NCBI GenBank assembly: GCA_048938005.1
Contig: JBHLMQ010000015.1
Span: 1-55,962 of the forward strand
Length of the DNA: 55,962 nucleotides
Origin: Promethearchaeota archaeon
Lineage (GTDB): Archaea; Asgardarchaeota; Lokiarchaeia; Sigyniarchaeales; SOKP01
Direction: 5' to 3'
In this document: positions 28,644 through 54,125 of the stretch, one piece after another
Layout: each line of letters begins with the position of its first letter
Position numbering within the stretch: position 1 is the stretch's first letter
Notes under the pieces: generated by a model
Seen by the model: the letters and a program-made list of their open reading frames with translations, nothing else
Databases searched by the model: none
What the model was told of the DNA's origin: nothing
Program-made: the position numbers and the translations under genes

Positions 28644-28848
28644 TTTTTCAACCTTAAGTTATATGTTCAAGTACTTTTAATTATATTGCTTATTTTTTTA
28701 AGAATTATTTAAAAAAAACCGCAAACCTTGCACCTATATTTTAAATTTTGAAACTGAATATCTCAAAAAACTTGATTTTTAAAATTTGTCAAGATTTATC
28801 GTTCACAGAATAGACAGAATAAGATTTTTTTATTTAGAATTAAAGATT

Positions 28849-29283: not shown

Positions 29284-29302
29284 GATTTATCCACATTCTA
29301 TT

Positions 29303-33678: not shown

Positions 33679-33815
33679 TTCATTCAGTTAATTCAAATTT
33701 TAATAATTTGAACTGATAATGATTAGAAAAAAAGTAGAAAGAATTTATTTTTTCTGATTAGTTTTCATAACTCTATTGGCAAAGGAGGAATAGATTTTTA
33801 TAATGAGCTGATAAA

Positions 33816-34331
33816 TTACAATTCTTTTGTGTAGTAAGAGTCTAATGTTTTTATAACAAATATTTTAACTATAACTAAAAATAGAGATAGTAAACCACAA
33901 TAAAAACCAGGTAATATTCTTTCATTTATAGATATATTTTTCCAATAATCAAAAAAAATCATATCATCTCCAGCCACCTCATAAAAAAGAATTGGAATAA
34001 TAAGGCTGCCTATCAACGCTATGATCATCAATACCAAACTTAAATAGTAAGGAATTGATTTGTCAAAATTTCTATAAAAAATGAATTGCGCAAAAACTCC
34101 TTGTACAAAGAAAATTGATAAAATAATATATACAGGTTGGCCATAGACACTACTGTAAGGATAAGTAAACATACTATAATTCCAAACTGCATAAAAAGGC
34201 TCAGAATATTCAAATTCCTGGAGATACCATTCAATGTGAAATATTCCTAATATTATAGTTAGAAGGACGGTTAAAAGAATAATCGAGTTGAATATCAATT
34301 TTACTATAATGGATTTTATTGTATTTTCCAT
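33816..34331 (-). CDS. Hypothetical membrane protein
   Basis: 171 aa with about 4 hydrophobic segments, ATG start, no recognisable motif. Confidence 0.55.
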   Translation of the reverse strand: MENTIKSIIVKLIFNSIILLTVLLTIILGIFHIEWYLQEFEYSEPFYAVWNYSMFTYPYSSVYGQPVYIILSIFFVQGVFAQFIFYRNFDKSIPYYLSLVLMIIALIGSLIIPILFYEVAGDDMIFFDYWKNISINERILPGFYCGLLSLFLVIVKIFVIKTLDSYYTKEL

Positions 34332-34458
34332 TATTTTTGATATTTTTGTTAAATTATATTGTGATTGTATATCCCAAGATCCTTTTAAATTTAGTCATAA
34401 TTCTAATACGAAATGAGGATATGCTTAAAAAAATGAAACGGATTTCTTATATTTCAAT

Positions 34459-37400: not shown

Positions 37401-37539
37401 TTTTGTCAAGTTGAGCCATCCTCCCTCCAATTGAAGGGGCTTTTTCTACAAGGTAAACTTTAAATCCCAATTCAGTTAAATCTAAAGAAGTTTGTATCCC
37501 TGCTATCCCACCACCAATAACTAATACTGATCCTTCCAT
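34459..37539 (-). CDS. hdrA: Large tandem HdrA-like flavoprotein, copy 2
   Basis: Same architecture and motifs as 29303-32398. Confidence 0.9.
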   Translation of the reverse strand: MEGSVLVIGGGIAGIQTSLDLTELGFKVYLVEKAPSIGGRMAQLDKTFPTNDCSLCILAPKMVEVFRNPNIELMTYHEVQKVTGKPGNFEVTVLKKPRYIDETKCKGCGDCAAKCPKIETPNIFDMNLGKRKSIYIPFPQAVPPVYLIDQELCLKLTKGVCGVCEKVCKAEAIDYEQKPQKINLKVGAIVVATGYDMLGEELTSRWGYNYKNVVSALEYERMLSASGPFEGHILRPSNEKEPEIIAFIQCAGSRDLREGIPYCSSVCCMYTAKEAIITKEHSENSKCFVFRHDVRAYGKNFYEFTQRAQKEYGVKYLQTKISRIIENPETNDLVIHYEDLKTGEFKDFHANLVVLATPLVPSAGTKELAEVLNIELDQYNFFKEKSYFNKSLSTKEGIFLAGFCQGPMDIPETVADSSGVASQVATLLNSFKFTETKEKIIGIPEKIVKETDIPRIGVLICHCGINIGKYIDIPQVIEQVKTLPNVVFCEDNLYSCSSDSQERIKEVIGEYNLNRFIVASCTPRTHESLFQETCQEAGLNKYLFEMVNIRDQCSWVHMTEKELATEKAVDLIRMGVAKSRLLKSQEEKKLKITQTALVIGGGISGMTAALNIANQGFKAYLIEKDKYLGGNLKYLNMLYPTQEDASVLLNETIEKVKQNKNIQIFLNSDLKNINGYIGNYDVSLSDSGNKIHELKIGTIIVATGGQELKPNEFFEYTYTNHNVITQLQLEQKLKDEDKSWLNKLNHITTLLCVNARQEKGITYCSNICCESAIKNINLLKELKHDLKLIVLYRDLQMAKKEFERYYRERRKDAIFLRYDLDNPPVIKEINGETSTFEIKVFDTNLQDNIKFSTDLLVLSTPMVPADNLDELAKMLKVPLDSNGFFLEAHVKLRPLDFATDGIFLCGCAHWPKNIQDSISQANGAAGRACRFLSAEEITTSGLIAEIDPETCIGCGKCEETCSYNAIETKSVMKEFEEVSLPIKNSSVNSGLCKGCGTCAVNCPVGAISIKHYDFEQINAMIKTLAM

Positions 37540-37622
37540 TATTTAACACTTTTAAATTTTTTTAATAAAAATTAGTTTTCCGCATCTTTTTTTCCATTGA
37601 ATAAAAAATAAAGAAATGTAAT

Positions 37623-37637
37623 TATATAAATATTTTT
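37623..37637 (-). promoter_or_regulatory. Putative BRE/TATA internal promoter upstream of hdrA copy 2
   Basis: Minus-strand AAAAATA-TTTATATA about 85 nt upstream of ATG 37539, within a ~560-bp intergenic gap. Confidence 0.35.
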
Positions 37638-38103
37638 ATGAAAAATGATCGGAATCCACCATTTTTCGCTTTTAAAATGATCAGTCCCATGCATCTATCA
37701 TTTCTAGGTTTTCGTAATTAGTCATAGTCTACATCTTTCTTTAATATTTCTGAATGTTTTGTTCGTTTTTGTTAGGAATATAAGGGAAAGAGATCCAGAA
37801 TGATAATTTTTCTTTTATGTATGATAGATTTGGGTAGGATTATATTTTTCAGTTTTCTTTAATCTGCATTATGTTAATTGTTGATAATAATACAAGTTAT
37901 AATGATCAATCTCTAGCACATTATACATTTTAAATAGCGAGATCGATCAAGAATTAAAATAATGCAAAAAATGGAAAGGGTATTGACATATTAGAGGATA
38001 ATTTGAACATATAATTTTAATATATCTTTAGAATAATGAAAAAATTAATTTAATCCTCTAATAAATATTAGAGTTATTTATTTTTTTTTATGAAAAGTAA
38101 TTT

Positions 38104-38535
38104 TTAGATTGGTCTTAAGGGACCTAGTTCTTTAATTTGATTTGTGAATTCTGTAATGACTTCAGCAAATCGTTTTCCTTCAGATGCACTTACCCACTCA
38201 AGTCTAAATCTTTTTTCAAGATTAAACATTCTTAAAATTTCTCGGAAATTTTCAAATCTATCTCTTGCAAACTCATTTCCCTTCAAGTAATGACAGTCGC
38301 CAATATGACATCCAGTTACAATGACTCCATCAATTCCATTTTTAAATGCCTCTAAAATAAAAGCGGGATCTACCCTTCCAGAACACATTACTCTGACAAT
38401 TCTAATAGTAGAGGGGTATTGAAATCGTGAGACTCCGGCTAAATCAGCTCCAGCATAGCTACACCAATTACAGCAAAAACACAAAATATTTGGGTGAAAT
38501 TCCTTTTTACTTACTTTCTTTTTTGACTTAGACAT
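38104..38535 (-). CDS. mvhD: MvhD-type [2Fe-2S] subunit (Cys form), copy 2
   Basis: [29 protein letters not shown]. Confidence 0.92.
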   Translation of the reverse strand: MSKSKKKVSKKEFHPNILCFCCNWCSYAGADLAGVSRFQYPSTIRIVRVMCSGRVDPAFILEAFKNGIDGVIVTGCHIGDCHYLKGNEFARDRFENFREILRMFNLEKRFRLEWVSASEGKRFAEVITEFTNQIKELGPLRPI

Positions 38536-38553
38536 ATATTAACACCTTATAAT

Positions 38554-41500
38554 TTAACTTTGAACTAAAAGAGCAGAAATCATGGCATTTATTTGTTCAA
38601 AACCAAAATGCTTAATAACTATTGTTGAATTGGGGCATTGTGCACCACATGTACCACAACCTTTACAAAGCGCAGGATTTACATGAGATTTCCTTATAGT
38701 CATTGTGATATCTTCAAAGGATCTTTCTGTCTCAATTAATTCTATAGCATTAAATTGACAGACTTCTACACAGCTTCCACAGCCAATACAATTTTCTTCT
38801 ATTACAACAGCTACAAGTCCAGAAGTTACAAGTTTTTCTGTACTTAAAATTTTGACTGCTTGAGCAGCAGCGCCATTGGATTGTGTAATTGATTCTCGAA
38901 GATCTTTGGGTGAATGAGCACACCCACATAAATATATTCCATCTGTAGCAAAATCAATTGGTCTCAGTTTAACATGAGCTTCCAAAAAGAATTTATCCTC
39001 ATTAAGTGGGACTTTTAACATTTTTGCTAACTCTTCATTTTCTTTTATGGGTGCTACGAGTCCTGTACTTAGCACAAGTAAATCAGGATTTATTTCAAGA
39101 TCCCCTAAGTCTGGATTGTTTACTTTAATTGTTAACTGTTCTTTTTTAATATTTAATTCTGGAGGTTTAGATTCATCAAACCTAAGAAATATAATCTTTT
39201 TATCTCGTGCTAAGTTGTAAAATTTTTCTTTAAAACCATATGTTCGAATATCACGATATAGAACTACTATTTCAATATTAGGGTTGATTTCTTTTGCTTT
39301 TAATGCATTTTTAATGGCTTCAGAACAGCATATTCGACTACAATATGGATGTTCTTCATTTCGTGATCCAACGCATTGAATCATAACTATTGATTTCAAA
39401 CCTTTTATTTTATCAGTAGTAAAAAGATCTTTTTCAAATTCAGTTTGGGATATAATTCTTTGATCTTCCCCAAAACTATATTCTTTTGGTTGATATTCTT
39501 TCGCTCCAGTAGCTACAATTATTATTCCATGTTCAAGATCAACACTTTTGCTATTATTTCCATAACTTACATTTGTGGAAAAATTCCCGATATATCCTGA
39601 TATTGAATTGATTTGAGCATTTTTAATTACGTGGATAAATTGATTATTATCAACTTTTTTAATTAGGTTTTCAAGAAACTCTTGAACATCATCATTTTCG
39701 AGGGTTCGATAAATATTTTTAGCAAATCCACCTAGAGAATCTTCCTTCTCAATTAAGAAAACTTCATAACCTTGAGAAGCTAGATTTAATGATGCAGACA
39801 TTCCAGAAACACCCCCACCTATGATTAATCCTTTAGGTATTACGGTTATTTCTTGTTCCTGTAATGGGATTAATTGGCTAGCCTTTGCTACTGACATACG
39901 CAATAAGTCTTTTGATTTTGCAGTTGCTTTTTCATGTTCGTGCATATGAACCCATGAACATTGATCTCGAATATTAACCATTTCAAAAAGGTATTTATTT
40001 AAACCAGCTTCTCTAATTGTTGCTTGAAATAAAGCTTCATGAGTTCTTGGAGTGCATGAAGCAACTATAACTCTATTCAGTTGATTTGCTTCTATTTTTT
40101 CTTTTATACTTGTTTGAGTATCTGCAGAACAAGTATATAAATTGTGCTCAGCATAGACTACATTAGGTAATGTTTTAACATATTCAACAACTTCAGGTAC
40201 GTCAACAACACCACCTATATTTATCCCACAATGGCAAATAAATACACCTATGCGTGGTGGTTGATCGCTTACATCTAATTCTTCAGGAAGTTCTTTTTTT
40301 GAGACCAATTTATTTCTTGCTTCTGGCAGGAGTACATTCACACGTCCTGCAGCTGCACTTGCTTCGATAACAGTTTCTGGAATATCTTTAGGTGATGCAA
40401 ACGCTCCACATACATAAATTCCCGGTTTTGAAGTCTCTACTGGACTGAAAGTATTGGTTTTACAAAAACCATATTCATTTAACTCGATATTTAATTTCTG
40501 AGCTAAATCTTTTGCTCTTTGATTAGGTTGCATTCCTACTGAAAGAACAACAAGGTTAAAAATTTCTTCAATAATTTTTCCATTTTCTGTCTCATAATAA
40601 ACTTTCAAATCTTTAGAATACGGGATCTCTTTAATAGACGATATTCTACGTCTAATGTATCTTACTCCATATTCATCTCTCGCTCGTTCAATATATTTGT
40701 CAAAATCCTTACCGTATGCTCGGATGTCCATCGTAAAAATGGTTGGTTCTACAATATCCATGTGTTCTTTAGCAATAACTGCTTCTTTTGTAGTATACAT
40801 ACAACAAACTGAAGAACAATAATCAATACCATGTTGTTTATCTCTTGAACCAATACATTGTAAGAACGCTATTTTTCTAGGAATAATTCCATCAGAAGGG
40901 CGAAGTATTAAACCAGCATGTGGTCCACTAGCGCTTAATATCCGTTCGAATTCAGTACTCGTGATAACATTTAAATATTTACCATAACCAAGTTGAGTTA
41001 AAGGAGTTGGATCATACTCATCAAAACCAGTTGCTAGTATTACCGCTCCTACATTAAGTTGAATATTTTTATCTTGAAGTTCATAATTTATAGCTTCGGC
41101 TTTACATATTCCTTCGCAAACTCCACAACCTACACATTTGTCTTTATTAATTGAAAAAACTAAAGGAACAGCCTGTGGAAATTTCACGGAGATTGCTGTT
41201 TTGTTTGAGAGGCCTTTATTAAAAATGTCAATTGCTTCTATAGGGCATTTTTGAGCACATAACCCGCAACCTGTACATTTATTTTGATCCAAATAAAGTG
41301 TCTTTTGAGTTAAATCAACTATAAAATTTCCTGGTTCTCCTTCAATTTTTTCTATATTTGAGTTTATTAAAATGTCAATATTTTCATGGCGACCAGTTTG
41401 TACTAATTTCGGAGCAAGAATGCATATAGCACAATCATTAGTTGGAAAAGTTTTATCTAATTGAGACATTACTCCTCCTATACTTGTTGTGGATTCAGCT

Positions 41501-41595
41501 AGATAAACCTTATATCCTGAATCTGCTAAATCTATAGAACTCTGAATTCCAGCAATACCCCCTCCTATAACTAAAACAGCGCCGACTTTCTCCAT
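38554..41595 (-). CDS. hdrA: Large tandem HdrA-like flavoprotein, copy 3 (most divergent)
   Basis: GGGIAG, DCAIC, QCIGSRD, CHCGINI, QCVGSR, C-terminal ferredoxin. Confidence 0.9.
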   Translation of the reverse strand: MEKVGAVLVIGGGIAGIQSSIDLADSGYKVYLAESTTSIGGVMSQLDKTFPTNDCAICILAPKLVQTGRHENIDILINSNIEKIEGEPGNFIVDLTQKTLYLDQNKCTGCGLCAQKCPIEAIDIFNKGLSNKTAISVKFPQAVPLVFSINKDKCVGCGVCEGICKAEAINYELQDKNIQLNVGAVILATGFDEYDPTPLTQLGYGKYLNVITSTEFERILSASGPHAGLILRPSDGIIPRKIAFLQCIGSRDKQHGIDYCSSVCCMYTTKEAVIAKEHMDIVEPTIFTMDIRAYGKDFDKYIERARDEYGVRYIRRRISSIKEIPYSKDLKVYYETENGKIIEEIFNLVVLSVGMQPNQRAKDLAQKLNIELNEYGFCKTNTFSPVETSKPGIYVCGAFASPKDIPETVIEASAAAGRVNVLLPEARNKLVSKKELPEELDVSDQPPRIGVFICHCGINIGGVVDVPEVVEYVKTLPNVVYAEHNLYTCSADTQTSIKEKIEANQLNRVIVASCTPRTHEALFQATIREAGLNKYLFEMVNIRDQCSWVHMHEHEKATAKSKDLLRMSVAKASQLIPLQEQEITVIPKGLIIGGGVSGMSASLNLASQGYEVFLIEKEDSLGGFAKNIYRTLENDDVQEFLENLIKKVDNNQFIHVIKNAQINSISGYIGNFSTNVSYGNNSKSVDLEHGIIIVATGAKEYQPKEYSFGEDQRIISQTEFEKDLFTTDKIKGLKSIVMIQCVGSRNEEHPYCSRICCSEAIKNALKAKEINPNIEIVVLYRDIRTYGFKEKFYNLARDKKIIFLRFDESKPPELNIKKEQLTIKVNNPDLGDLEINPDLLVLSTGLVAPIKENEELAKMLKVPLNEDKFFLEAHVKLRPIDFATDGIYLCGCAHSPKDLRESITQSNGAAAQAVKILSTEKLVTSGLVAVVIEENCIGCGSCVEVCQFNAIELIETERSFEDITMTIRKSHVNPALCKGCGTCGAQCPNSTIVIKHFGFEQINAMISALLVQS

Positions 41596-42368
41596 TATTT
41601 CCCCTCCTTAATTGATATAAATGTTGGAATCTCTTCATGTATTTCATCAAGATCAACCAAACCTCTCTGTCTTAGAGTGACAATATGATTTAATACTTCA
41701 TTTGGCTTAACTTGTATCTCGTTCGATATTTCTGGTACTGATTTGCTCGAATCTTTAATTTTTTGTAATATTTTGTAACGAATAAATTCATTATATAAAC
41801 TATCATCAAGAATTTCTTCAAATTCTTCTTTTGGTATTATTTCATTATATACATTACCTTCTGTAGTAATTAGCCTTTCTCTACTAACTAATGTTCTAAT
41901 TCTAGAATCAGCCAATACAGATTTAATTACTTCAAAATTCTCTAATAATTCTTTTTTCAATTTTTTGTTTTTTATAGGTGAAGGACCTAAATTAGTAATA
42001 AATTCATTAAAATCATTTACTAGTTGAGCAAACCTATTACCCTCAGAAGCCGAGACCCAATCCAAACGAAAACGTTCTGAAAATCCAACATAATTTAATA
42101 ATTTTCTAAGCATGTTCATTTTCATCTCTGCTTCATAATTACCGGTCATATAATGACAATCTCCTGGGTGACAACCTAAAACAAGGACCCCATCAACTTT
42201 TTTTAAGAAAGCTTCAGCTATAAAAATGGGATCAACTCTCCCACTGCACATTACTCTTATAATTCTAATATTAGGAGAATATTGAATTCTACTTACACCC
42301 GCAAGATCAGCTCCAGCATAAGAACACCAATTACATAAAAATCCTAAAATTTTTGGTTTAAATGCCAT
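41595..42368 (-). CDS. mvhD: MvhD fused to a C-terminal helical/winged-helix domain
   Basis: ATG 42368 after SD GGAGGAG; [19 protein letters not shown]; about 120-aa extension ending in wHTH-like SVPEIS..I......VLNHIVTLRQRGLV. Confidence 0.88.
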   Translation of the reverse strand: MAFKPKILGFLCNWCSYAGADLAGVSRIQYSPNIRIIRVMCSGRVDPIFIAEAFLKKVDGVLVLGCHPGDCHYMTGNYEAEMKMNMLRKLLNYVGFSERFRLDWVSASEGNRFAQLVNDFNEFITNLGPSPIKNKKLKKELLENFEVIKSVLADSRIRTLVSRERLITTEGNVYNEIIPKEEFEEILDDSLYNEFIRYKILQKIKDSSKSVPEISNEIQVKPNEVLNHIVTLRQRGLVDLDEIHEEIPTFISIKEGK

Positions 42369-42372
42369 CTCT

Positions 42373-45300
42373 TTATTCTCCTCCATAGGCAGTAATTTCT
42401 GATAAAATTTGCTCATTTGTAAAATGAAATACTGTTATTGCATTTTCTGGACAACTCGCACCGCATACACCACAGCCTTTACAAAGCAATTTATTTATAA
42501 CTACATTTCCCTCTTCGTTCTTTGATATGGCATTATATGGGCAGAGTTTTATACACACTTTACAACCAACACATAATTCATTATTCACTTCTGCTACTAA
42601 TCCCGAAGCAATAATATCTGCTGAACTTAAAATTCTACTTGCTCTTCCTGCTGCACCATTCGCTTGAGTGATAGATTCTTGAATATGCTTTGGCCAGTGA
42701 GCACACCCACATAAAAATACACCATCAGTAGCAAAATCTACTGGTCTCAATTTAGCATGAGCTTCTAAGAAAAAACCATGTTTATCTAAAGGTACTTTAA
42801 GCATTTTTGCCAATTTTTCTGAATCATCTGAGGGAACCATAGGAGGTGATAATACGATTAAATCCGTATCAAAATTGATAATATCTTGTAAATTAGTATC
42901 AAATACCTTTATTCCGTATTTTTCAGGTTTATTGCTAATTTTAGTGATTTCTGGTGGCATATCTAAACTATATCTCAGAATCATAGCATCCTTCCTTCTA
43001 TTAAAAAAATATTCTTCAAATTCTTTTTTAGCCATTTGAAAATCTCTATAAAGAATTATTATTTCGAGATCTGGCTTTAGGTCTTTTAGGATGTCCATGT
43101 TTTTGATAGACGTAGCACAACAAATATTTGAACAATATGTGATTCCTTCTTTTTGTCTAGCATCGGCGCATAATATAGTTGTAACACGCTTGATATTATC
43201 GAGCCAAGTTTTATCTTTCTTTTTTAAATTCCGTTCTAATTCTAATTGAGTAATTACATTTTGATTTTTATTATTATATTGAAGATATCCAAGAGGTTTT
43301 AATTCTTGACCTCCAGTGGCAACAATAATAACACCAACTTTAAATTCGTTAATTTCATTTTTGGAGTCAGTAATAGTTATATCATAATTACCTACATATC
43401 CTTTAACATCTTTTACTTTAGATTCTAAACTAATTTGTATATTTTTATTTGCTCTAACATCCTGTTTTATTTTTTCTAAAAATTCTGATGTATCTTCATG
43501 AGTGGGATACAAAAGATATAAATCATTCAGAATCCCCCCTAGTATTTTTTCTTTTTCTACAAGATAAACTATAAATCCTTGATTAGCGAGATTTAATGCA
43601 GCAGTCATTCCGGATACTCCACCACCAATTATTAATGCTTTCTGAGAAACTGAGAGCTTTGGTTCTTTTTGGGACCTCAATAATCTGGATTTAGCAACGG
43701 TCATTTCGATTAAATCTTTAGCTTTCTCGGTAGCTAATTCCTTTTCAGTCATATGAACCCAAGAACACTGATCACGAATATTCGCCATTTCAAAGAGGTA
43801 TTTATTTAATCCAGCTTCTTGACAAGTTTCTTGAAATAAGGATTCATGCGTTCTTGGGGTACAAGAAGCCACAATAAATCTATTTAAATTATATTCATTT
43901 ATAACTTCCTTAATTCTTGCTTGTGAATCACTAGAACATGAATATAAATTATCTTCACAATATACTACATTAGGTAATTTTTTTATGTAGTCTACAACAT
44001 TAGGAACATCGATATATTTTCCAATATTAATACCACAATGACAAATTAGTACACCAATTCTAGGTTCATCTGTTAAATTAACTTCTTTTTCTGGTATATC
44101 AAATACTTTTTCTTTTATTTGAGTAAATTTAGCAGAACTTAATAAAGCTGCTACTTGAGATGCTACCCCACTGGCATCAGCTACTGATTCTGGTATATCC
44201 ATCGGACCTTGACAAAATCCTGATAAAAATATACCTTTTCTTGAAGATAAAGATTTAGTAAAATGATTTTGTTCCTTAAAGAAATTATAATCATCTACGT
44301 TAATATCTAGAATCTTTGCTAATTCTCTAGTTCCTTTAGATGGCACTAAGGGTGTAGCTAAAACAACCATACTTGCCCTAAATTCGTTAAGTAATCCAGT
44401 TTGTAGATCTTCATAACGAATAACTAAATCATTTGTTTCTGAATCTTCTACAATTTTACTAATTTTCGAATGAAAATATATTACTCCATATTCTTCTTGA
44501 GCTTTTTGAGTAAATTCATAGAAGTTTTTTCCATAAGCTCTAATATCATGTCTAAATACATAACATTTGGTTTGCTCTGAATGTTCCTTAGTTATTATTG
44601 CTTCTTTCGCTGCATACATGCAGCATACACTTGAGCAATAGGGGACTCTTTCGTGTAAGTCTCTTGAACCCGCACATTGAATAAAAACTATAGTTTCGGG
44701 TTCTTTTTCATCACTAGGACGTACAACATGTCCACCATATGGTCCAGATGCGCATAAAATTCTCTCATATTCAAGGGCAGTTACAACATTTTCATAACGA
44801 ATACCCCACCTTGATGTTAGATTATCTCTAGTCATATCAAAACCGGTTGCTACGACGATTGCTCCTACATGCAATTCAATTTCTTGAGGCTTTTGTTCGA
44901 AATCTATTGCTTCCGCTTCACATACTTTCTGGCATACACCACATACATCTCTAGTTAATTTTAAGCACATCTCAGGATCAATTAAATAGACGGGAGGAAC
45001 TGCCTGAGGAAATGGAATATATATAGACTTTCTTTTTCCTAGATTCATGTCAAAAACATTAGGAGCTTCAATTTTTGGACACTTAGTAGCACAATCACCA
45101 CAGCCTTTACACTTATTTTCATTAATGTATCGAGGTTTTTTAAGTACTGTTACTTTAAAATCTCCAGGTTCTCCTGAAACTTTTTGGACTTCATGATAAG
45201 TCATTAATTCAATGTTAGGATTTCTGTATACCTCTACCATTTTTGGGGCTAAAATGCATAAACTACAATCTAAAGTTGGGAAAGTTTTATCCAGTTGAGC

Positions 45301-45423
45301 CATTCTCCCTCCAATCGAGGGTGTTTTTTCTACAAGATAAACTTTCAAACCTATTTCAGTCAAATCCAAAGATGCTTGAATTCCGGCTATCCCCCCACCA
45401 ATGACTAACACTGAGCCCTCCAT
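42373..45423 (-). CDS. hdrA: Large tandem HdrA-like flavoprotein, copy 4
   Basis: Same architecture as copies 1 and 2; TAATG overlap with the upstream gene. Confidence 0.9.
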   Translation of the reverse strand: MEGSVLVIGGGIAGIQASLDLTEIGLKVYLVEKTPSIGGRMAQLDKTFPTLDCSLCILAPKMVEVYRNPNIELMTYHEVQKVSGEPGDFKVTVLKKPRYINENKCKGCGDCATKCPKIEAPNVFDMNLGKRKSIYIPFPQAVPPVYLIDPEMCLKLTRDVCGVCQKVCEAEAIDFEQKPQEIELHVGAIVVATGFDMTRDNLTSRWGIRYENVVTALEYERILCASGPYGGHVVRPSDEKEPETIVFIQCAGSRDLHERVPYCSSVCCMYAAKEAIITKEHSEQTKCYVFRHDIRAYGKNFYEFTQKAQEEYGVIYFHSKISKIVEDSETNDLVIRYEDLQTGLLNEFRASMVVLATPLVPSKGTRELAKILDINVDDYNFFKEQNHFTKSLSSRKGIFLSGFCQGPMDIPESVADASGVASQVAALLSSAKFTQIKEKVFDIPEKEVNLTDEPRIGVLICHCGINIGKYIDVPNVVDYIKKLPNVVYCEDNLYSCSSDSQARIKEVINEYNLNRFIVASCTPRTHESLFQETCQEAGLNKYLFEMANIRDQCSWVHMTEKELATEKAKDLIEMTVAKSRLLRSQKEPKLSVSQKALIIGGGVSGMTAALNLANQGFIVYLVEKEKILGGILNDLYLLYPTHEDTSEFLEKIKQDVRANKNIQISLESKVKDVKGYVGNYDITITDSKNEINEFKVGVIIVATGGQELKPLGYLQYNNKNQNVITQLELERNLKKKDKTWLDNIKRVTTILCADARQKEGITYCSNICCATSIKNMDILKDLKPDLEIIILYRDFQMAKKEFEEYFFNRRKDAMILRYSLDMPPEITKISNKPEKYGIKVFDTNLQDIINFDTDLIVLSPPMVPSDDSEKLAKMLKVPLDKHGFFLEAHAKLRPVDFATDGVFLCGCAHWPKHIQESITQANGAAGRASRILSSADIIASGLVAEVNNELCVGCKVCIKLCPYNAISKNEEGNVVINKLLCKGCGVCGASCPENAITVFHFTNEQILSEITAYGGE

Positions 45424-46703
45424 TATTTTTTTACCTCCACACTTTTAACAGAATCAATTGTTTCTATCATATCTACCAAAAATTCTGAGAAATCTAAAAT
45501 TTCAATTTTAGAGAAATCATCATAATCTTTTTTTAGGCAATTTAAATGGTTACGGCATTTGGGACACGAAGTAATCATTTTTGTTCCGACAGCTTTAGCT
45601 TCTGAAAGACGTTTGTATCGTAAAGCCTTAGATCGCTCGTTACAATTCATCCAAGAGTTAACTCCACAGCAATAAGAATTTTCTTTATTATGTTCCATTT
45701 CCCTAAACTCATAACCTATTTTTTTAAGGTGTTGAAAAATCTCTCGAACTTGCTCAATGATTTTATTATCTTTTGGTAAAAATTTACTTAGTCTACAGGG
45801 ATCGTGATATGTAAAAGGGATAATTTCATCAGATTTAGTTGGATTTTTGAATTGAACTTTACCCTGCTTCCATTTATCAAAAACATATTCAATTAAATGT
45901 TTAACTTCAAATTTTTCATTAAAATCTTCAAATAATTTTGGATAATCTATTTTAAATGTTCTATAACATTCAGCACAAGCTGTTATTATTGTTGAGATTC
46001 CCGCTTTTTTGAATAATTTTAAATTTTTCTTCGCTAATTCAATAAAAACTTCGAATTTTCCTTGACCCCAATATAAATCATGACCACAACATATCTCCTC
46101 TTTAAGAATTACTATTGGTTCTTTCTCAATTTGACAAATGATTTTCAAAGTGCTTTCCGCAATAGAGATAATATTCTCAAATTCAAAAGTAAAAAAAGGC
46201 AAACATCCTACATAATATAAAATATTTCCTTTATCTGAAATTTTGCAACCTTTTTGAACCCAATCCAACGGTCTTTCAATTTCAATATTTGGTTGACTCA
46301 TTAATTCAGACATCATAGGATAGATACCTTTATGAGCAATAGATCGATCAAGGTTGTGAATACCTTTCATTCGCATTTTATATCGAGCAATTCTTACAAT
46401 ATCAGCAAAATTTATATCCTTAGGACACATCTGAAGGCAACTATTACACATTAAACAATCCCATAATACCCCACTCTCAATTACCTCATCTTCAAAACCT
46501 TCTAATATCATCTGGATAATTCTACTGGGTGTAAATTTTTGAACTTTACTTATTTGGCATACACCTGAACAACGAGCACATTGATAACATTTTTTTAACA
46601 AGTTAACTAAATCTGGCTCGTATATTTTTGCTAAGTACGAATCAAATTCATTAACTTCTGGTTTAATTTTCTCAGACTTTTCCAATTCTGTTATCAAGCT
46701 CAC
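45423..46703 (-). CDS. HdrD/GlpC-like Fe-S oxidoreductase, copy 2
   Basis: CYQCARCSGVC, CLMCNSCLQMCP, two CCG domains; clear paralog of 32398-33678. Confidence 0.85.
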   Translation of the reverse strand: MSLITELEKSEKIKPEVNEFDSYLAKIYEPDLVNLLKKCYQCARCSGVCQISKVQKFTPSRIIQMILEGFEDEVIESGVLWDCLMCNSCLQMCPKDINFADIVRIARYKMRMKGIHNLDRSIAHKGIYPMMSELMSQPNIEIERPLDWVQKGCKISDKGNILYYVGCLPFFTFEFENIISIAESTLKIICQIEKEPIVILKEEICCGHDLYWGQGKFEVFIELAKKNLKLFKKAGISTIITACAECYRTFKIDYPKLFEDFNEKFEVKHLIEYVFDKWKQGKVQFKNPTKSDEIIPFTYHDPCRLSKFLPKDNKIIEQVREIFQHLKKIGYEFREMEHNKENSYCCGVNSWMNCNERSKALRYKRLSEAKAVGTKMITSCPKCRNHLNCLKKDYDDFSKIEILDFSEFLVDMIETIDSVKSVEVKK

Positions 46704-46707
46704 TTCC

Positions 46708-47820
46708 TTATTGTAAATTTTTCATGAATTCTTCTTTTCGCTTTATTTTTGATTCAGAAAACTTAATTAGTAGCTCTTTCATATCGGTTTTTGCTTTAGC
46801 GTCAAGTTCTAATGATTTAATAATATTTTTGTCTAATACTTCATGAAATAGTTTTTTACCTTTATCAGTTCGAGGTATTACAGTAGTATATTTATCTTGA
46901 GAACCAAGTCCTCCAAATGAAATATCTGAATATATATTTGTAAAGTCAATACAAGAATGACAAGCAGGTCGTATATAATCAACTAGCTGATCGAAAGGAA
47001 TACGGATAATTTTCTCTTTAGAATTTTTATCTTCTACTTTTAAAATTAGAGCCTCCTTAATATTTATTTTTTTAATATTTTCAAACTTGATTTTAAAATT
47101 TTTTTCAAATTTTTCTTTTTTAGATTTATCGAATAAGAAATTATGATAACAAAATAATCCTAAACAAATTTCGATATATTCTGAGGGTGTGACACCCAAA
47201 TTTTGCATACACCTTATTGTGTAGATTTGACAAGGTGTGCCCACTATAGCTAATTTTTTAAATTTATAATGATTCAATTTTACAATAGAGCGAGTATAAG
47301 TACTAAATCTTTGTATCTCGTCTAATTGTGAAGTTATTTCTAGTTTTGTCCCGGAAGCTTTAATTAATTCATCCTTTTTGCCTGCAAACATGGATTCTCT
47401 AGAAAATGGAGCATCAAATTTAGATACTATTGCTCCATCAATTACTTTTTTTTCTAATAAGTAATTTATTAAAGTATTTACAACACCTCCATCAGTTCCA
47501 TATTTTAAGAATTCAGGGTCATTGGTTTGACAGGAATAGATATCTTCTAATTTGCCAAGAGGCTTGGAAGCAAAATCTGTAAATTGATAAGTTTTATTGA
47601 GATCCTCATCTAAAATATGTGTTTGAGGGCAAATACAATAACATATACCACATTCAAGGCATGCATCCTTATTTATATACTCCGGAGGTGAAAATGGCTC
47701 TTTAAAGCCGATTACATTTTCAAATGTTGCTGAACAGAAAGAAGTACATCCCCCACATTCCTGGCAGATGCCTTTTTCATGAACTTCCTTAATTAAATCT
47801 TGAAATGTTTTTGAACTCAT
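46708..47820 (-). CDS. FrhB/FdhB-family (F420-interacting) subunit with N-terminal ferredoxin
   Basis: ATG 47820 (MSSKTF); CQECGGC, CLECGICYCICP, DGGVV, VGTPCQ, GLFC, CHSC.DF...SDISFG. Confidence 0.85.
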   Translation of the reverse strand: MSSKTFQDLIKEVHEKGICQECGGCTSFCSATFENVIGFKEPFSPPEYINKDACLECGICYCICPQTHILDEDLNKTYQFTDFASKPLGKLEDIYSCQTNDPEFLKYGTDGGVVNTLINYLLEKKVIDGAIVSKFDAPFSRESMFAGKKDELIKASGTKLEITSQLDEIQRFSTYTRSIVKLNHYKFKKLAIVGTPCQIYTIRCMQNLGVTPSEYIEICLGLFCYHNFLFDKSKKEKFEKNFKIKFENIKKINIKEALILKVEDKNSKEKIIRIPFDQLVDYIRPACHSCIDFTNIYSDISFGGLGSQDKYTTVIPRTDKGKKLFHEVLDKNIIKSLELDAKAKTDMKELLIKFSESKIKRKEEFMKNLQ

Positions 47821-47830
47821 AATATTAATT

Positions 47831-49333
47831 TTATTTTTCTTTCTTTTCCAATTTAATTGGTTCACAATTTTTTCTTTTTGTCCCAGCAATCCTTTCTAAT
47901 AAGGGTTGTCCTGGTTTAACATCTTTTAAACTTTTAGATTCTATTAATCCTGCTTTAATGGCTTCTTTATAGATTTTCTCACCTTTTTTATTTCGTGTAA
48001 TTACTGAGGACCAACCACTAGGTGAACCAATTGATCCTACAGAAATATCCGCAAAATCTGCAGTCAAATCCTCGCAGTAATGACAATTGTGCCGAGCATA
48101 AGATTTCACATCTTTTAATGGTACTTTTAAATCTCCGCCCGAATCTAAATAGATGATAAATTTACCACCACTTATATCCATTTTTGTTATTTTAGTATAA
48201 TCTTTATCAAATTGTTCCTTAATTAAGTTAAGTATACCCTCATAGGGAAAAGATTCCATGCAAAAAAGCCCAATTTTATATTTAATATTTTTGAAAAAAG
48301 GTAAGCCACTCGGAAACAAATTTCCTTTCTCTAAAGCATTCATCATACAAGGAACTCCTACAATTGCTATATTTTCATATTGTTTTGTATCATCTATTAT
48401 AGAGAGTGTTGAGGCGTTAGCATATTTAGTTCCTCCAGTCTTATATAAATCTTTAACATCCTCTATTATAACTGGCTCAGGTTTCCATAATTCCTTTGAA
48501 TGCTGTACTGCTACGATTGCGTCAACTAGTTTATTTTTGAGTAAATATTCAAGGATCGAGGTTACAATCCCTCCATCTTGTCTTACTTTTTTAATCTCAT
48601 CCTTAGTGGTTGTGGCAGAATATGCATTAATATAACCATTAATCTTTTCTGAAAATTTCAATGCTTTATCGAGTTTATTAATACTTTTGCCCACTTGTTC
48701 AATTGAAAATGATCTGGGACAAACAGAATAACACAAACCGCATTTTATGCAATTATCATCATCTATATCTAAAGTATCTGCTGTCGCTTTAATAGCATTT
48801 ACGGGACAAATTGATGAGCACCAACCACATTGACAGCATACTTCAGATTCAAACACTAAAGAGACTGGTTCAAAAAAGTGTTCAATGAAATCCTCAGGAA
48901 TATCTTTAAATTGATACCTATAGAAATATTCTTTTTCTTCGACTTCTTTTTCTTCTCCTTTAATTTTTTTAATTACTTTTTTAGTTTTTATTTCAATATA
49001 TTCTTCAACATATCCTTGTTCTTTCAGATAGATTATATCACGAATTACGTTTTCTTGAGGAAAATCGTTTACAATTTTTGCAATTTCCTCTAAAAATAAC
49101 GGTTCATTACCCTTTAATTTCTCTAACACTAATTTGCGCTCTGTTTCAGCATCAATCATGGCATCTAATATTTCATAGAATTCTTCTTCAGAATATTTTC
49201 CAGTATTCAAAATTTCCTCTTTTGCTTCGTAAAAAGCTCGAATTTGAAAATTCTCGACTGCTTTATAGGTAGCATCCATTAAATTTTTTGGCGATATTCC
49301 ATTGAAATTGATATTTTTAGCAATTTGAACCAT
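47831..49333 (-). CDS. FrhB/FdhB-family subunit with N-terminal helical/winged-helix domain and ferredoxin
   Basis: CCQCGWCSSICP, CIKCGLCYSVCP, QDGGIVT, GTKY, GVPCM, GLFCME, CHYC.D..ADISVGSIG. Confidence 0.88.
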   Translation of the reverse strand: MVQIAKNINFNGISPKNLMDATYKAVENFQIRAFYEAKEEILNTGKYSEEEFYEILDAMIDAETERKLVLEKLKGNEPLFLEEIAKIVNDFPQENVIRDIIYLKEQGYVEEYIEIKTKKVIKKIKGEEKEVEEKEYFYRYQFKDIPEDFIEHFFEPVSLVFESEVCCQCGWCSSICPVNAIKATADTLDIDDDNCIKCGLCYSVCPRSFSIEQVGKSINKLDKALKFSEKINGYINAYSATTTKDEIKKVRQDGGIVTSILEYLLKNKLVDAIVAVQHSKELWKPEPVIIEDVKDLYKTGGTKYANASTLSIIDDTKQYENIAIVGVPCMMNALEKGNLFPSGLPFFKNIKYKIGLFCMESFPYEGILNLIKEQFDKDYTKITKMDISGGKFIIYLDSGGDLKVPLKDVKSYARHNCHYCEDLTADFADISVGSIGSPSGWSSVITRNKKGEKIYKEAIKAGLIESKSLKDVKPGQPLLERIAGTKRKNCEPIKLEKKEK

Positions 49334-49415
49334 AATTCCATCCTTCAGGAATATATTTTTTTGAAAAATTTAACTTTTTAATTGAATACTATTTAAAAAC
49401 CCCTTCCTTTGCTAG

Positions 49416-49461
49416 GTTAGTCTTCTTATAACCAGAATTTTTTTATAAGAATCATTCTAAC
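49416..49461 (-). ncRNA. Eukaryote-like SECIS element (cis-acting Sec insertion hairpin)
   Basis: Minus strand reads GUUAG-A-AUGA-UUCUUAUAA-AAAAAUUCUGG-UUAUAAGAA-GA-CUAAC: 5-bp lower stem, AUGA/GA kink-turn core, perfect 9-bp upper stem, A-rich apical loop; sits at the 3' end of UGA-containing genes. Confidence 0.85.
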
Positions 49462-49913
49462 GGGGTAGTTATAATTTCTGTTGTTTCAACTTTTGATTCT
49501 TTATCTACTAAATTAATTGGACTAGGTCCAGCTTTTTTTAGTTTTTCATAAGCGTCCTCAACAGATTCGACAAATTTCCCAGCATCTCCTCCACTTAACC
49601 AATACATATTAATTCTTTGATTTCCGAAACCTCTGGATTCTAAGATTCTATTTGCTAATTCAACATGTCTTTCAGCAGTAAAATTGCCATTTTTAAATTG
49701 ACATTCATTAGGGCGTCAACCAACAATCATAACACCATCAGCTCCCGCGCGAATGCTATATAAGATGTGCTTAACATCAATTCTGCCAGTACATCTTACT
49801 TTGACAATTTTGACAGCAGGTGTATATTTCAATCGAGAAACTCCTGCTAAATCAGCCGCGCTATATCCTCACTTTAAACAAGCGAATACAACCATTTTAT
49901 AAGTATTTTCCAT
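49452..49913 (-). CDS. vhuD: Selenoprotein MvhD/VhuD (153 aa, Sec15 and Sec66); absent from the ORF track
   Basis: ATG 49913: MENTYKMVVFACLK-U-GYSAADLAG..RCTGR..GADGVMIVG-U-RPNEC..WLSGGD..GPSP..TPLE*. TGA at 49869-49871 and 49716-49718 align with Cys of CNWC and GCH in paralogs; SD GGAGGT upstream. Confidence 0.92.
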
Positions 49914-49919
49914 GTCTGT

Positions 49920-51863
49920 CTAACCACCTCCTAAAAGACCATCAATTTCAGCAAATAGTTGATGATCTCGATAATACCTTATATCAATAGCCTGAGTTGG
50001 ACAGCATGTGGCACAAATACCGCATCCATCACAGTTTATCTCATCAATAAACGCTCCAATATCCTCTTCAATCCTAATGGCATTTTTTGGGCATTCTTTT
50101 TCACACCTTCTGCATGAAATACAAAATTCGCTGTCAACTTCAGCTGTTATCAGTTCTAAATCGATTTCTCCGGGAGCTGTTAATTCAGCTACTTTACTAG
50201 CGGCAGCTCTAGCTTGAGAAACTGAATAAGAAATATTTTTTGGACCCTGAGCAAACCCAGCTATAAAAATCCCTTTTGTCTTTGTTTCTTGCGGCATTAA
50301 ACCAAAGTGTGATTCTGTAAGGAAACCATATGTATTAGTATCAAGATTTAATACTTGAGCAATCTGTTGAGTACCTTTTGAAGGGAGTGCTGCTGTGGAT
50401 AAAACTACTAAATCAGCATCAATTTTTACAATCTTATCTGTAAGAGATGAATACACCCGAACTTTCACGTTTTTTGTTTCAGGATCTTCAGAGATTTCAC
50501 CTACTTTTCCTCGAATCATTTTAATCCCTGCTTCTTTAGCTCGTTCATAGTACTCTTCAAATCCTTTTTCAGGAGTTCTTATGTCAATATAACAAATTGT
50601 AATGTTTGCATCAGGAAATTCTTCTAAAAGTAATCGTCCATTTTTAAGAGCAAGCATGCAGCAAACACCACTACAATAAGTACGCTCAGTTTCTCGACTT
50701 CCTACGCATTGTATAAATACAATTTCTTTGGGTTCCTTGTTATCCGAAATTCTATGCACATGTCCCTCAAGAGGTCCATTTGGGGCTAATATACGTTCTA
50801 ATTGAGGTTGAGTTATGACATTTTCGAACTCTCCATATCCATATTCTCCAAATGGTTCATAAATGTCCCAACCAGTTGCTATAATGATCGTTCCAACATT
50901 AATATTAACTTCTGTTGGTACTTGACTAAAGTCAATAGCATCTAATTCACAAGCATCTACACAGGAGAAGCACTCTACACAAGCATCTCTGTCGATATCA
51001 TAAAGAAACGGTACTGCTTGACCAAATGGAATGTCTATTGCCTTTCGTGCTCCTAAATATTCGTCGAAATAATTAGTTGTGTAAACTGGACAAACTTCAG
51101 CACATGCTCCACATCCATTGCATTCATCTGTTGTATAACGTGGTTTCTTTTCAATCGTTACATTGTAATTACCAACATAACCTTCTATATTCTTTACCTC
51201 GCAAAATGTTAATAATTCAATATTTTCATTTCTGTTAACTTCAAGCATTTTAGGTCCGCAAATTCATATAGCACAATCGTCTGTAGGAAATGTTCTGTCC
51301 AATTGAGCCATTCTTCCACCGATGGTTGTTTTATGGTCAACTAAGTAGACTTTAACGCCTTGATTTGCAAGATCCAGAGCTGCATTCATTCCACCAATCC
51401 CTCCTCCAATGACCAATGTAGCCTTTGTAACCGGAACGGTTCTAATAGGGACTGGCTCTAAGAGTTTGGCTCTGTCAATACCACTTTTAACCAATATTTT
51501 TGCTTTTTCTGTAGCTTCTTCTTTGCTATCTGTACACCAAGAACAATGTTCACGAACATTAACCATTTGAAAATAATATGGGTTTAAATCTGTTTTTGCT
51601 ATAGTACCTCGGTAAATTACTTCATGTGTCCGTGGGGTTCAAGCCGATGCTACAATTCTGTTTAAATTCTTTTCATTGATATCCTCAATTATTTCATTTT
51701 GCGCATTATCAGTTCAAAGAAATGAGTTTTTCTTTGAAATTATGATTTCGTCTCCAAGGTTTTTTACATAGTCTACTAATTCATCGCAATCTACTTTACT
51801 TCTAATATTAATACCTCATTGACAAGCATAGTATCCAATCCGATGATTTTCTTTATCACTCAT
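49920..51863 (-). CDS. hdrA: Selenoprotein HdrA (647 aa, Sec16, Sec50, Sec75, Sec200); split in the ORF track
   Basis: ATG 51863 after SD GAGGTGG; single frame to TAG 49920-49922 with TGA at 51816-18 (CQ-U-GINI), 51714-16 (SFL-U-T), 51639-41 (SA-U-TPRTHE) and 51264-66 (DCAI-U-ICGPK), each matching Cys in paralogs. Confidence 0.92.
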
Positions 51864-52262
51864 CTATTTTTACACACCACCTCGCAATTATACAAAATTG
51901 TAAATTTAACTGTGAATTTCTTAGATTTTTATTGGATGTTTTTTAAGTTCCAATATTGATCTTTATTTTAATATCGAACTTAAATATTTTTTTTTAAAAA
52001 TTATTCATTTTTAATATTTTTAATTCTTTCTGTTAATCGATATAACAAATATTTTATTAGGCGGTCACAACTTCAAGATATTTTTGACCAGACCGAAGAT
52101 TATTGATTATTTGATTTTAGAAATCGTTAAAGCTTAAAGAGATTTGTGATTAATTCTCAACATTCTTTGAAGAATTATTTTTAAAAAAGTAAATATAAAT
52201 TAAAAAAAGGGATGGTAAACAAAAAATTTTCTAATATTTTTATTGAGTTTGATAAGACTAGG

Positions 52263-53252
52263 TTAATTTTTATTTAAATATTCTTTATAATAATGAGATT
52301 TATTTAAAAGGTATTTTCGAGCAATTGATCTAAACATTATTGTAAAAAATCGTGAAATAGCTACTTTTTTTCTAACTGCATTAAAGTAGTCATCAATGGT
52401 ATACCTTTGATAATTTAAAAGAGCTTGACTTTTATCAGTAGTCATAAATCCACAATGAAAGCCTTTTGTACTAAATGCTTCAGCAGGTAGAACATCATAT
52501 CCAATCCCAAAAATATTTAACATTTCATTAAGATATTCTCGATATGAGATCCGACATCTTTCTCCACCAGCAATATGCATTACTTCCCCCCATATTTCTT
52601 TATTTTCCACTGCATTAGTAAGAGCGAGACCAACATCTTTTGTATCACAGATTTCTATACAAGTATCAAGAGGCATTTCAAACATTAATGGATCCATTTG
52701 TAATTTATTCAAAGAGACGATATACGTTAAGCGAAAGATTGCCCAATCCAAGCTTGATTTTTTAATTAGCTCCTCACACTTGACCTTCTGTTTAGCATAT
52801 TCATCATCCGGATTAGGATTGAGTGGATCATCAGGAGTTATTAAAGGACTTTCAAGTCGATCACCATATATTGCAACTGAAGACGTAAATATGAGTTTTG
52901 GTTTTTTAGGCTGTTTTTCCATTGCTTTAATAATATTGGCAGTTCCTCCAACATTAACGGATTCTGCATACTTTGGTTTTTTATCGGCAAGGGGAGGAAT
53001 AATCGCTCCAACATGGATAATGACATCTTTGTCAGAAACAGCTCTCTCGACATCCTTATAATAGCGTAAATCTCCCCAAAAGATTTTAATATCTTTTTTA
53101 TATTTATTGGCAATTCTTTTATTTCTTTTTGTCTTAATATCAAAAACTCTAATATTATAATTTCGCTTAATTAGTTCTTTTAGTGTACTTAATCCTACAT
53201 TCCCAAATGCTCCTGTAAGCAAAACATTCAGTTTAATCACCTTTCTTTCCAA
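52263..53252 (-). CDS. NAD-dependent epimerase/dehydratase (extended SDR)
   Basis: TGAFGNVG, FTSS, YAKQK catalytic motif; exact start uncertain (53252 or ~53240). Confidence 0.85.
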   Translation of the reverse strand: MERKVIKLNVLLTGAFGNVGLSTLKELIKRNYNIRVFDIKTKRNKRIANKYKKDIKIFWGDLRYYKDVERAVSDKDVIIHVGAIIPPLADKKPKYAESVNVGGTANIIKAMEKQPKKPKLIFTSSVAIYGDRLESPLITPDDPLNPNPDDEYAKQKVKCEELIKKSSLDWAIFRLTYIVSLNKLQMDPLMFEMPLDTCIEICDTKDVGLALTNAVENKEIWGEVMHIAGGERCRISYREYLNEMLNIFGIGYDVLPAEAFSTKGFHCGFMTTDKSQALLNYQRYTIDDYFNAVRKKVAISRFFTIMFRSIARKYLLNKSHYYKEYLNKN

Positions 53253-53435
53253 AATTGATTAAATATTTGATTTTGAAATTCAATGAATATAGCTAATATA
53301 TTTTTATATGGCCAATCTTTATTCTTCTGGCATAAATTAATATTGAACCTTACTAAGATAATAAAAGAATTTACATTTATGTTCTAGGGTTGCAATCGCA
53401 ACTTTTTTTTCATTTCAAATATTTATTAAAATACC

Positions 53436-54125
53436 ATGAAAATTGTAAGATTACAAATTCCAGGGAATTTTTTGGAGTATATTGATACTGGATTTGTTGA
53501 TTTATTTCAAAACCTTGAATTTGTTGAAATCCTAAATGCATTTCAATACGATCAAAAGAATTTTTTTACTCTTCAAAGGATCCGGTTTAAACCAAACTCA
53601 TTTCAAGATTTAAACAAATTTATTAGGGATCGTTTCAAACCTCAATTTTTTAAATTATTACATCAGTCTGGAAATGAAATAATATGTATAATGAGACAAA
53701 GTAGATCTTCAGGATTTTTCCCTATATTTGAATCAGCACAAGGATGGGCTCTTCTTTTCCCTATTCATGTGTCTCAAGAAGTCCTCTTAATAAATATCAT
53801 ATCCCAAACTAAAAACATCAATAAATTGTTTAACATAATTTCCTCTTTCACAAATGATTATAAGATCATAGCTATGACTGATGTTGATAAATTAGATAAG
53901 TTTGATAATACTCTTTGGAAATCTGCTATGCCATTTCCAGAATTTACAGAACGTCAGAGAGATATTGCATCATTTGCCGCAAAATATGGTTATTTTAAGT
54001 CCCCAAAAAAAATCACTGCTCTTGAAATTGCAGAAAAATTTGGAATTTCAGTCTCTGCTGTTAATAAGTTATTAAAAAAAGCAGAAAATACTGCAATGGA
54101 GTTCTTCTTTGGAAAGTATCCCTAA
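53436..54125 (+). CDS. Transcriptional regulator with C-terminal HTH_10 (Bat-like) domain
   Basis: FTERQRDI...A...GYFKSPKKITALEIAEKFGIS.SAV..LLKKAE. Confidence 0.85.
   Translation: MKIVRLQIPGNFLEYIDTGFVDLFQNLEFVEILNAFQYDQKNFFTLQRIRFKPNSFQDLNKFIRDRFKPQFFKLLHQSGNEIICIMRQSRSSGFFPIFESAQGWALLFPIHVSQEVLLINIISQTKNINKLFNIISSFTNDYKIIAMTDVDKLDKFDNTLWKSAMPFPEFTERQRDIASFAAKYGYFKSPKKITALEIAEKFGISVSAVNKLLKKAENTAMEFFFGKYP

Follow-up and report, generated by a model that had tools for sequence, protein, structure and literature searches.

According to Mariotti et al. (2016, Mol Biol Evol, PMC4989117), tandem hdrA-vhuD genes of Lokiarchaeota always have one selenocysteine (Sec) insertion sequence (SECIS) element, the lokiSECIS, downstream of vhuD, and the searched text of that paper proposes a polycistronic mRNA with up to six UGA codons distributed over ~2 kb. 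Hdr genes of Asgard archaea were revisited by Huang et al. (2024, ISME J, PMC11227280), where, in the searched text, hdrA and frhD are in every case adjacent genes and nearly all use a common SECIS; the searched part of a 2026 review adds nothing experimental. Here we analyze such a locus in a 55,962-nt stretch of a Promethearchaeota archaeon genome (GenBank assembly GCA_048938005.1, contig JBHLMQ010000015.1, positions 1 to 55,962 of the forward strand; hereafter, the window), in which hdrA and vhuD, together carrying six in-frame UGA codons, are followed by a lokiSECIS. From conservation across related loci we consider it likely that the two genes share one mRNA and that its sole SECIS would recode all six UGA codons. 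A sequence-only reading of the window had suggested that a single distal SECIS acts across the cistron boundary, and the comparison of loci, with one SECIS per locus and a conserved tight gap between the genes, supports this prediction. The finding is already known: it is a correct rediscovery of the hypothesis of Mariotti et al.

A different type of archaeal SECIS is found in methanogens, where hdrA has a SECIS of its own (PMC4989117, searched text). These elements are defined by an asymmetric GAA/A internal loop that separates the basal stem from an apical stem rich in G+C (PMC11881835), and their function has been shown experimentally with a Methanococcus maripaludis reporter, also from the 5' untranslated region (UTR) (PMC9622424, PMC11881835). 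A 3'-UTR SECIS of Methanococcus works at 88-679 nt without a strict distance limit, as given in the searched text of PMC9622424, which provides a precedent for distance; the separation of UGA and SECIS at our locus is ~3.5 times the longest tested there. The locus would resemble vhuD of Methanococcales, as described in the searched text of these papers, in that two UGA codons are served by one element and a 3'-UTR SECIS acts at a distance, and it differs in having an AUGA/GA core instead of the GAA_A internal loop.

The mRNA of vertebrate selenoprotein P is monocistronic and contains several UGA codons, which are decoded in an SBP2-dependent manner from two distal 3' kink-turn SECIS elements. 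The arrangement described here is similar in that several UGA codons would be decoded from a distal 3' kink-turn SECIS, and different in that two cistrons are combined with one SECIS. SBP2 was not detected in Lokiarchaeota, as stated in the searched text of PMC4989117.

The gene pair, its UGA codons and the SECIS have the following positions in the window:

49920-51863, minus strand: hdrA (heterodisulfide reductase subunit A), 647 codons, stop TAG; the open reading frame (ORF) is read through TGA
51816-51818, minus strand: hdrA UGA codon 16; TGA in 34/36 aligned HdrA, Cys in the 2 Cys-type paralogs
51714-51716, minus strand: hdrA UGA codon 50; TGA in 26/30 orthologs, Cys in 4 orthologs and 6/6 paralogs
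51639-51641, minus strand: hdrA UGA codon 75; TGA in 30/30 orthologs, Cys in 6/6 paralogs
51264-51266, minus strand: hdrA UGA codon 200; TGA in 34/36 HdrA, Cys in the 2 Cys-type paralogs
49914-49919, minus strand: hdrA-vhuD spacer, 6 nt
49452-49913, minus strand: vhuD/mvhD (hydrogenase delta subunit), 153 codons followed by a UGA stop, which is the UGA of the SECIS core
49869-49871, minus strand: vhuD UGA codon 15; TGA in 19/19 aligned orthologs
49716-49718, minus strand: vhuD UGA codon 66; TGA in 19/19 aligned orthologs
49416-49462, minus strand: lokiSECIS, eukaryote-like type I, with a lower helix, an AAU bulge, a tandem G.A/A.G core (AUGA...GA), a 9-bp helix and an 11-nt A-rich loop

Thus, the six UGA codons across the two cistrons and the 6-nt separation of the genes, both given in the sequence-only reading, were confirmed, with four of the codons in hdrA and two in vhuD. 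The hdrA product matches Fer4 families, Pyr_redox_2 and FAD-binding families of Pfam, and the vhuD product matches FlpD/MvhD (PF02662, E 7.8e-42, 142.6 bits). The Shine-Dalgarno sequence of vhuD, GGAGGUGG, is located in the final hdrA codons. As in the Lokiarchaeota pairs of PMC4989117 (searched text), the junction is very short or overlapping, and there are up to four Sec positions in HdrA and two in VhuD.

We aligned 30 HdrA orthologs and 6 paralogs and found TGA in at least one sequence at six columns (16, 50, 75, 200, 301 and 614), each of which is Cys in other paralogs or orthologs. Position ~200 is named as the canonical Sec position of HdrA in the searched text of PMC4989117, where five Sec columns are named as compared with the six found here. 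The hdrA frame is conserved past every TGA (29 loci, orthologs 81-95% identical). The hdrA TGA codons therefore show the exchange of Sec and Cys that is characteristic of selenoprotein genes, the vhuD TGA codons are kept in all aligned orthologs, and both genes are predicted to encode selenoproteins. One could instead suppose that, at some UGA codons of hdrA, a near-cognate tRNA (Cys or Trp) is used or translation often terminates, without Sec being inserted; we regard this as very improbable, given that TGA is held at codons 16, 75 and 200 in 30/30 orthologs. The retention of TGA, although one base change gives Cys, argues for selection for Sec itself.

The genome (G+C content 29.8%) contains the expected decoding genes in one region: a tRNA-Sec (C97:101872-101964), an adjoining SepSecS gene, and, 4 kb from the tRNA, a SelB-like factor that scores 231.9 bits, slightly short of the cut-off for bacterial selB (242). 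UGA ends 271 of the 2147 long ORFs (12.6%). It is an ordinary stop elsewhere in the genome, so recoding must be gene-specific and needs a gene-specific signal.

The SECIS hairpin is formed by the core AUGA (49455-49452) and GA (49422-49421), a main helix with all 9 of its 9 pairs formed (49451-49443 with 49431-49423), an 11-nt apical loop, AAAAAUUCUGG (49442-49432), and a lower helix GUUAG/CUAAC (49461-49457 with 49420-49416). The AUGA is invariant in 32/32 aligned SECIS elements, and 8 of the 9 main-helix pairs have changes on both sides among 34 sequences. In its core, stem-loop geometry and position the element conforms to the lokiSECIS, or Asgard eSECIS-like type I. The 9-bp stem, the 11-nt A-rich loop, the possible overlap with coding sequence and the absence of UGA as an hdrA stop are all shared with the lokiSECIS loci in the searched text of PMC4989117; among the loci studied here the hdrA stop is TAA in 21/28 and TAG in 7/28, in a count that admitted only these two codons and whose ORF ends match the alignment. 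Both AUGA_GA and AUGA_AA cores are present among the sampled elements, as reported for the Asgard type I elements in the searched text of PMC11227280.

The element overlaps the vhuD stop codon. A seventh in-frame TGA of the pair, at 49454-49452, is the UGA of the AUGA core and probably serves as the stop of vhuD; a TAA follows two codons later, within the SECIS stem. Of the 22 ortholog loci examined, 19 have a vhuD ORF that runs in frame into the AUGA core and ends there. In the searched text of PMC4989117 a stop of this kind is described for VhuU.1, with the argument that unfolding leads to termination. In vhuD, a ribosome that arrives at the AUGA-core UGA would by then have opened the lower helix as well as the core, and because of this unfolding it would terminate there, or at the UAA two codons on.

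We further searched for a second SECIS in the hdrA leader (51864-52262), the coding sequences and the 3' gap (49334-49415). A covariance model built from 7 elements of this genome (R1), run with filters off over 47000-53500, scored the known site at 61.4 bits and the next best site at 11.6, and thus yielded no second SECIS. R1 proved too narrow, as the true element of another pair in this genome (C21) was missed even with filters off; a second model (R2) was therefore built from 32 diverse elements from several gene groups and genomes, and it scores the C21 element at 45.4 bits. With filters off, R2 found the known site at 58.0 bits and nothing above 16.6 bits elsewhere on both strands of the whole window. 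A relaxed AUGA/GA descriptor ([AG]UGA, an 8-12-bp stem tolerating one mismatch, a 9-29-nt loop rich in A, then GA or AA) had the known site as its sole match on the window's contig. The statement of the sequence-only reading that 49334-49415 and 51864-52262 hold no second AUGA/GA hairpin was upheld by both models and descriptors, and the covariance-model scan that it called for, of the hdrA coding sequence and 5' leader, revealed no additional SECIS inside or upstream of hdrA.

Elements of other types were likewise absent. The methanogen-type GAA_A descriptor gave 0 matches in the 2929-nt sense region of the pair versus 0.045 expected from shuffles. No Rfam SECIS family reached its gathering score in the window, or an E-value up to 10 in 49200-52400, and the element itself does not qualify as a member of the eukaryotic family SECIS_1. 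The six 60-nt stretches starting from each UGA, where a bacterial-type SECIS would be located, fold no better than shuffles (z -0.58 to +1.83), and there is no suppression of synonymous change in hdrA just 3' of the UGA codons.

An approach that needs no SECIS model is the scan of synonymous sites, which we applied to 26 hdrA orthologs (median pairwise nucleotide identity 78%) in 639 nine-codon windows. No signal of an embedded RNA element was obtained apart from the gene ends: the median ratio of observed to expected synonymous change was 1.01, and only the windows starting at codons 1-10 and 633 were below 0.7. The exceptions thus comprise codons 1-15 and the last 15 codons, the latter with the vhuD ribosome-binding site. 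As a positive control, the 6 final vhuD codons, where the gene overlaps the SECIS, had 162 observed versus 287 expected changes (0.56).

Two candidates from these searches were rejected. An internal look-alike at hdrA codons 448-460 (AUGA, 9, 11, 9, GA) forms 7/9 pairs in the window and 4-9 in the 26 orthologs, its AUGA is lost in 6 of them, and its synonymous ratio is 0.93. A RybB-like Rfam match antisense to hdrA (51665-51735, plus strand; 30.6 bits versus a gathering score of 40) looks like a chance hit. RybB is an enterobacterial family.

Within the family, most genomes of two genera contain a close ortholog of the four-Sec hdrA. One strong SECIS follows vhuD in 27/27 orthologous loci with a complete 3' flank, a count that leaves aside two further loci ending at a contig edge, and exactly one SECIS was found in 20/20 paralogous loci sampled in other genomes. 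With filters off, R2 also detected one SECIS in each of 18/18 ortholog loci, with a next best score of 19.4 bits; the weak second matches of L035 (19.4 bits) and L024 (14.2 bits), each in a different upstream place and not shared, were dismissed. This genome contains three more Sec-type hdrA-vhuD pairs (C18, C21 and C49), each followed by a SECIS-like hairpin; R2 confirms one SECIS after each of them, and a filters-off R1 scan of C18 and C49 produced no other.

The genes are also tightly joined across the family, with a gap of -8 to +8 nt in 26/28 loci that hold both; the 1665-nt gap computed for the other two (L022 and L028) is an artefact of an in-frame stop in an hdrA insert. A natural control is provided by hdrA genes without vhuD (C78:7075-9162 and its counterpart L066), which have a SECIS directly behind. 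The C78 gene has two TGA codons and a tail that resembles the vhuD C-terminus, and its SECIS lies ~100 nt past the end of HdrA homology. The retention of a SECIS behind an hdrA that lacks vhuD is as expected if hdrA needs the element in cis. These data bear on the alternative that hdrA and vhuD have separate transcripts, through an internal promoter or processing, and that the hdrA UGA codons are recoded in trans or independently of a SECIS. The tight gap (6 nt in the window), the location of the vhuD ribosome-binding site inside hdrA, the SECIS immediately behind vhuD-less hdrA and the use of UGA as a working stop in the genome all speak against it, and we give this alternative the least credence of those considered.

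Some orthologs extend the arrangement beyond that of the window. Two of them have five TGA codons in hdrA and thus seven UGA codons, with vhuD, on one SECIS, in comparison with up to six in the searched text of PMC4989117. In L022 (G046:C91) and L028 (G082:C4), a 39-nt insert with an in-frame TAA or TAG is located at hdrA codon ~105 (window ~51550), between QMVNIR and EHCSW; the stem of a hairpin within it (AAGAGU/ACUCUU) is conserved, and the loop varies. These hdrA genes may be split, which would place three cistrons under one SECIS, or the insert may be a small element resembling an intron.

Taken together, these observations are consistent with the following mechanism. The hdrA and vhuD genes would be read from a single bicistronic mRNA, in which the only Sec-insertion signal is a kink-turn SECIS that starts within the last vhuD codons. 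A Sec-specific elongation factor carrying Sec-tRNA(Sec) would be recruited through this SECIS, and would recode the four UGA codons of hdrA, located 1.8-2.4 kb upstream (the first is 2363 nt upstream of the SECIS AUGA), and the two UGA codons of vhuD.

Several points weigh against this mechanism. The models and descriptors used here detect only elements that resemble known SECIS types, and the block at hdrA codons 7-15 is unusually conserved within two genera. Under coupled transcription and translation, ribosomes would be at the first UGA, 45 nt into the gene, long before the SECIS, 2.4 kb downstream, is made. In the literature searched, we found no transcript, protein or selenium evidence for any Asgard selenoprotein, and no bench test of an Asgard SECIS. 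Finally, there is no U run after the SECIS in 7/28 loci and a FrhB-like gene always follows, so the SECIS may be internal to a longer mRNA and not lie in a 3' UTR.

The last point concerns the region around and behind the SECIS, which has these features:

49400-49465, minus strand: extended structure around the SECIS, with an outer helix of CCCC (49465-49462) and GGGG (49403-49400) and a small 3' hairpin at ~49415-49406
49395-49399, minus strand: U5 run, directly after the outer helix
47831-49333, minus strand: FrhB-like gene (Pfam FrhB_FdhB_N/C), given as context only

The outer helix pairs the last vhuD codons with the 3' flank. Three of its four pairs have changes on both sides among the 34 sequences; under constrained folding it is formed in 45/46 elements, and the outer helix and 3' hairpin are formed together in 34/46, versus 21% with shuffled flanks. 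By contrast, PMC11227280 reports, in its searched text, no conserved lower-stem or internal-loop nucleotides, and this extended junction was not found in the searched text of either Mariotti et al. or Huang et al. The same extended layout was observed in L001-L007 and L050-L069, where the 3' hairpin, of 3-5 bp, follows the lower helix directly on its 3' side and has a loop that nearly always contains G(C).

The U5 run is a possible archaeal termination signal. A run of at least four T begins 20-21 nt past the SECIS core in 21/28 loci and is followed by a conserved TTTAAATA-like block, a motif that could be a promoter for the next gene. It is conceivable, if doubtful, that the SECIS is shared as proposed but is intercistronic in a three-gene mRNA (hdrA, vhuD and the FrhB-like gene) rather than part of a terminal 3' UTR. 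The FrhB-like gene is found downstream on the same strand in 28/28 loci with 3' sequence, at 82-87 nt past the SECIS in the window (3' gap 49334-49415), and the 7 loci that lack a T run right after the SECIS agree with such an mRNA; the T run directly after the outer helix in the other 21, with its possible promoter, does not, although both are known as motifs only.

The conserved block at the start of hdrA and the adjacent leader are located as follows:

51812-51845, minus strand: slow-evolving nucleotide block, hdrA codons 7-17, which ends at the first UGA
51877-51883, minus strand: Shine-Dalgarno-like GAGGUGG of the hdrA leader, conserved in an alignment of 28-29 leaders

In the 26 orthologs, codons 7-15 have a synonymous ratio of 0.36, the lowest stretch of the gene, and their sequence (CAU CGG AUU GGA UAC UAU GCU UGU CAA) is nearly invariant. 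A conserved leader sequence, GAGGUGG(A)UGUGUAAAAA, lies upstream of the hdrA start, at 51864-51883. A second cis element of an unfamiliar kind, with this 27-nt block and the conserved leader as the candidate, might therefore aid the decoding of the 5' UGA codons. Such an element would fit the near invariance of CGG, ATT and TAC within the block despite the 78% median identity, the restriction of windows below 0.7 to the two gene ends, and the position of three of the four UGA codons at or before codon 75 of hdrA. However, the block and leader have no consensus fold (alifold -0.41 kcal/mol), and the block has no SECIS-like match with R1 or R2; the two-Sec paralogs vary freely at this position, conservation is relaxed in 12 more distant orthologs, which have synonymous changes in the same codons, and no such block accompanies UGA codons 50, 75 and 200. 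We consider a second element improbable on this evidence. A version of the same idea, in which the distal SECIS is necessary and insufficient and the 27-nt stretch (51845-51819) forms a second layer of cis-signals together with the extended SECIS junction, appears to us equally improbable; if true, this second layer would let ribosomes decode UGA codons that lie as near as 45-225 nt to the beginning of a bicistronic message of 2.5 kb, with its SECIS at the opposite end.

Two possible partners of the block were tried and rejected. It is complementary over 12-13 bp (G.U included) to a conserved block just after the SECIS, but pairing of equal or better quality was obtained with 23% of random 100-nt segments of the genome, and the second genus has the 5' block without the 3' block. 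A short-word BLAST search of the genome for a partner in trans returned only chance-level matches of 11-13 nt.

Further conserved signals were observed around the start of hdrA. In the otherwise divergent leader, at 51940-52130 on the minus strand, the palindromes GGUCA..N..UGACC and UUGAUCU..AGAUCAA are conserved and adjoin an A/T-rich TATA-like block; they may be regulator sites. Many of the two-Sec hdrA paralogs (C18:~17251, C21:~7372, C78:7075 and L071-L087) carry, immediately behind the start codon, the conserved inverted repeat GUCUGA-N3-5-UCAGAC, which encodes SE.QT and possibly forms a hairpin at the translation start.

Other loci with Sec-related features were noted as well. A lokiSECIS lies 11-86 nt after small ORFs in seven loci of six genomes. 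The products of these ORFs (44-88 codons) have a basic N-terminus followed by a single hydrophobic helix, and the one in-frame TGA lies in a short, mostly Gly-rich tail (for example GGTGUGG, GGGGUTSC, GGCGUGG, EPTUPSTC). Examples are G000 C73:12141-12278 on the plus strand, with its SECIS at C73:12358-12404, and C80 (L007:583-816, minus strand), with its SECIS at C80:520-566; relatives are found in L091, L094, L098, L100 and L101. The ORFs match no Pfam family at its cut-off, the words 'membrane' and 'transmembrane' are absent from the main text of PMC11227280, and the seven families listed there do not include them; they may represent an undescribed family of small membrane selenoproteins. 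Another ORF, at G000 C17:134700-135021, in which two in-frame TGA codons are adjacent (HAD-U-U-ADV), is followed by a lokiSECIS ~100 nt downstream. Within the window, at ~28800-45500 on the minus strand, four clusters of Cys-type, domain-split HdrA-like genes are present, three of them with a detected MvhD-like gene; they contain no in-frame TGA and no SECIS match.

The additions of this analysis to the published record are modest: the seven-UGA orthologs, the 39-nt stop-bearing insert, the extended junction, the frozen synonymous block and the small membrane ORFs. The window itself is a clean and typical instance of a shared-SECIS pair, and the seven-UGA orthologs, the vhuD-less hdrA with its own SECIS and the hdrA with a stop-bearing insert offer useful natural comparisons. 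If the proposed mechanism is true, the Sec decoding of these archaea would exceed all others proposed for prokaryotes in range and in number of sites, with six or seven UGA codons served over 2.4 kb and across a cistron boundary. It would then be a plausible intermediate towards the eukaryotic Sec system, a point already in print in 2016.

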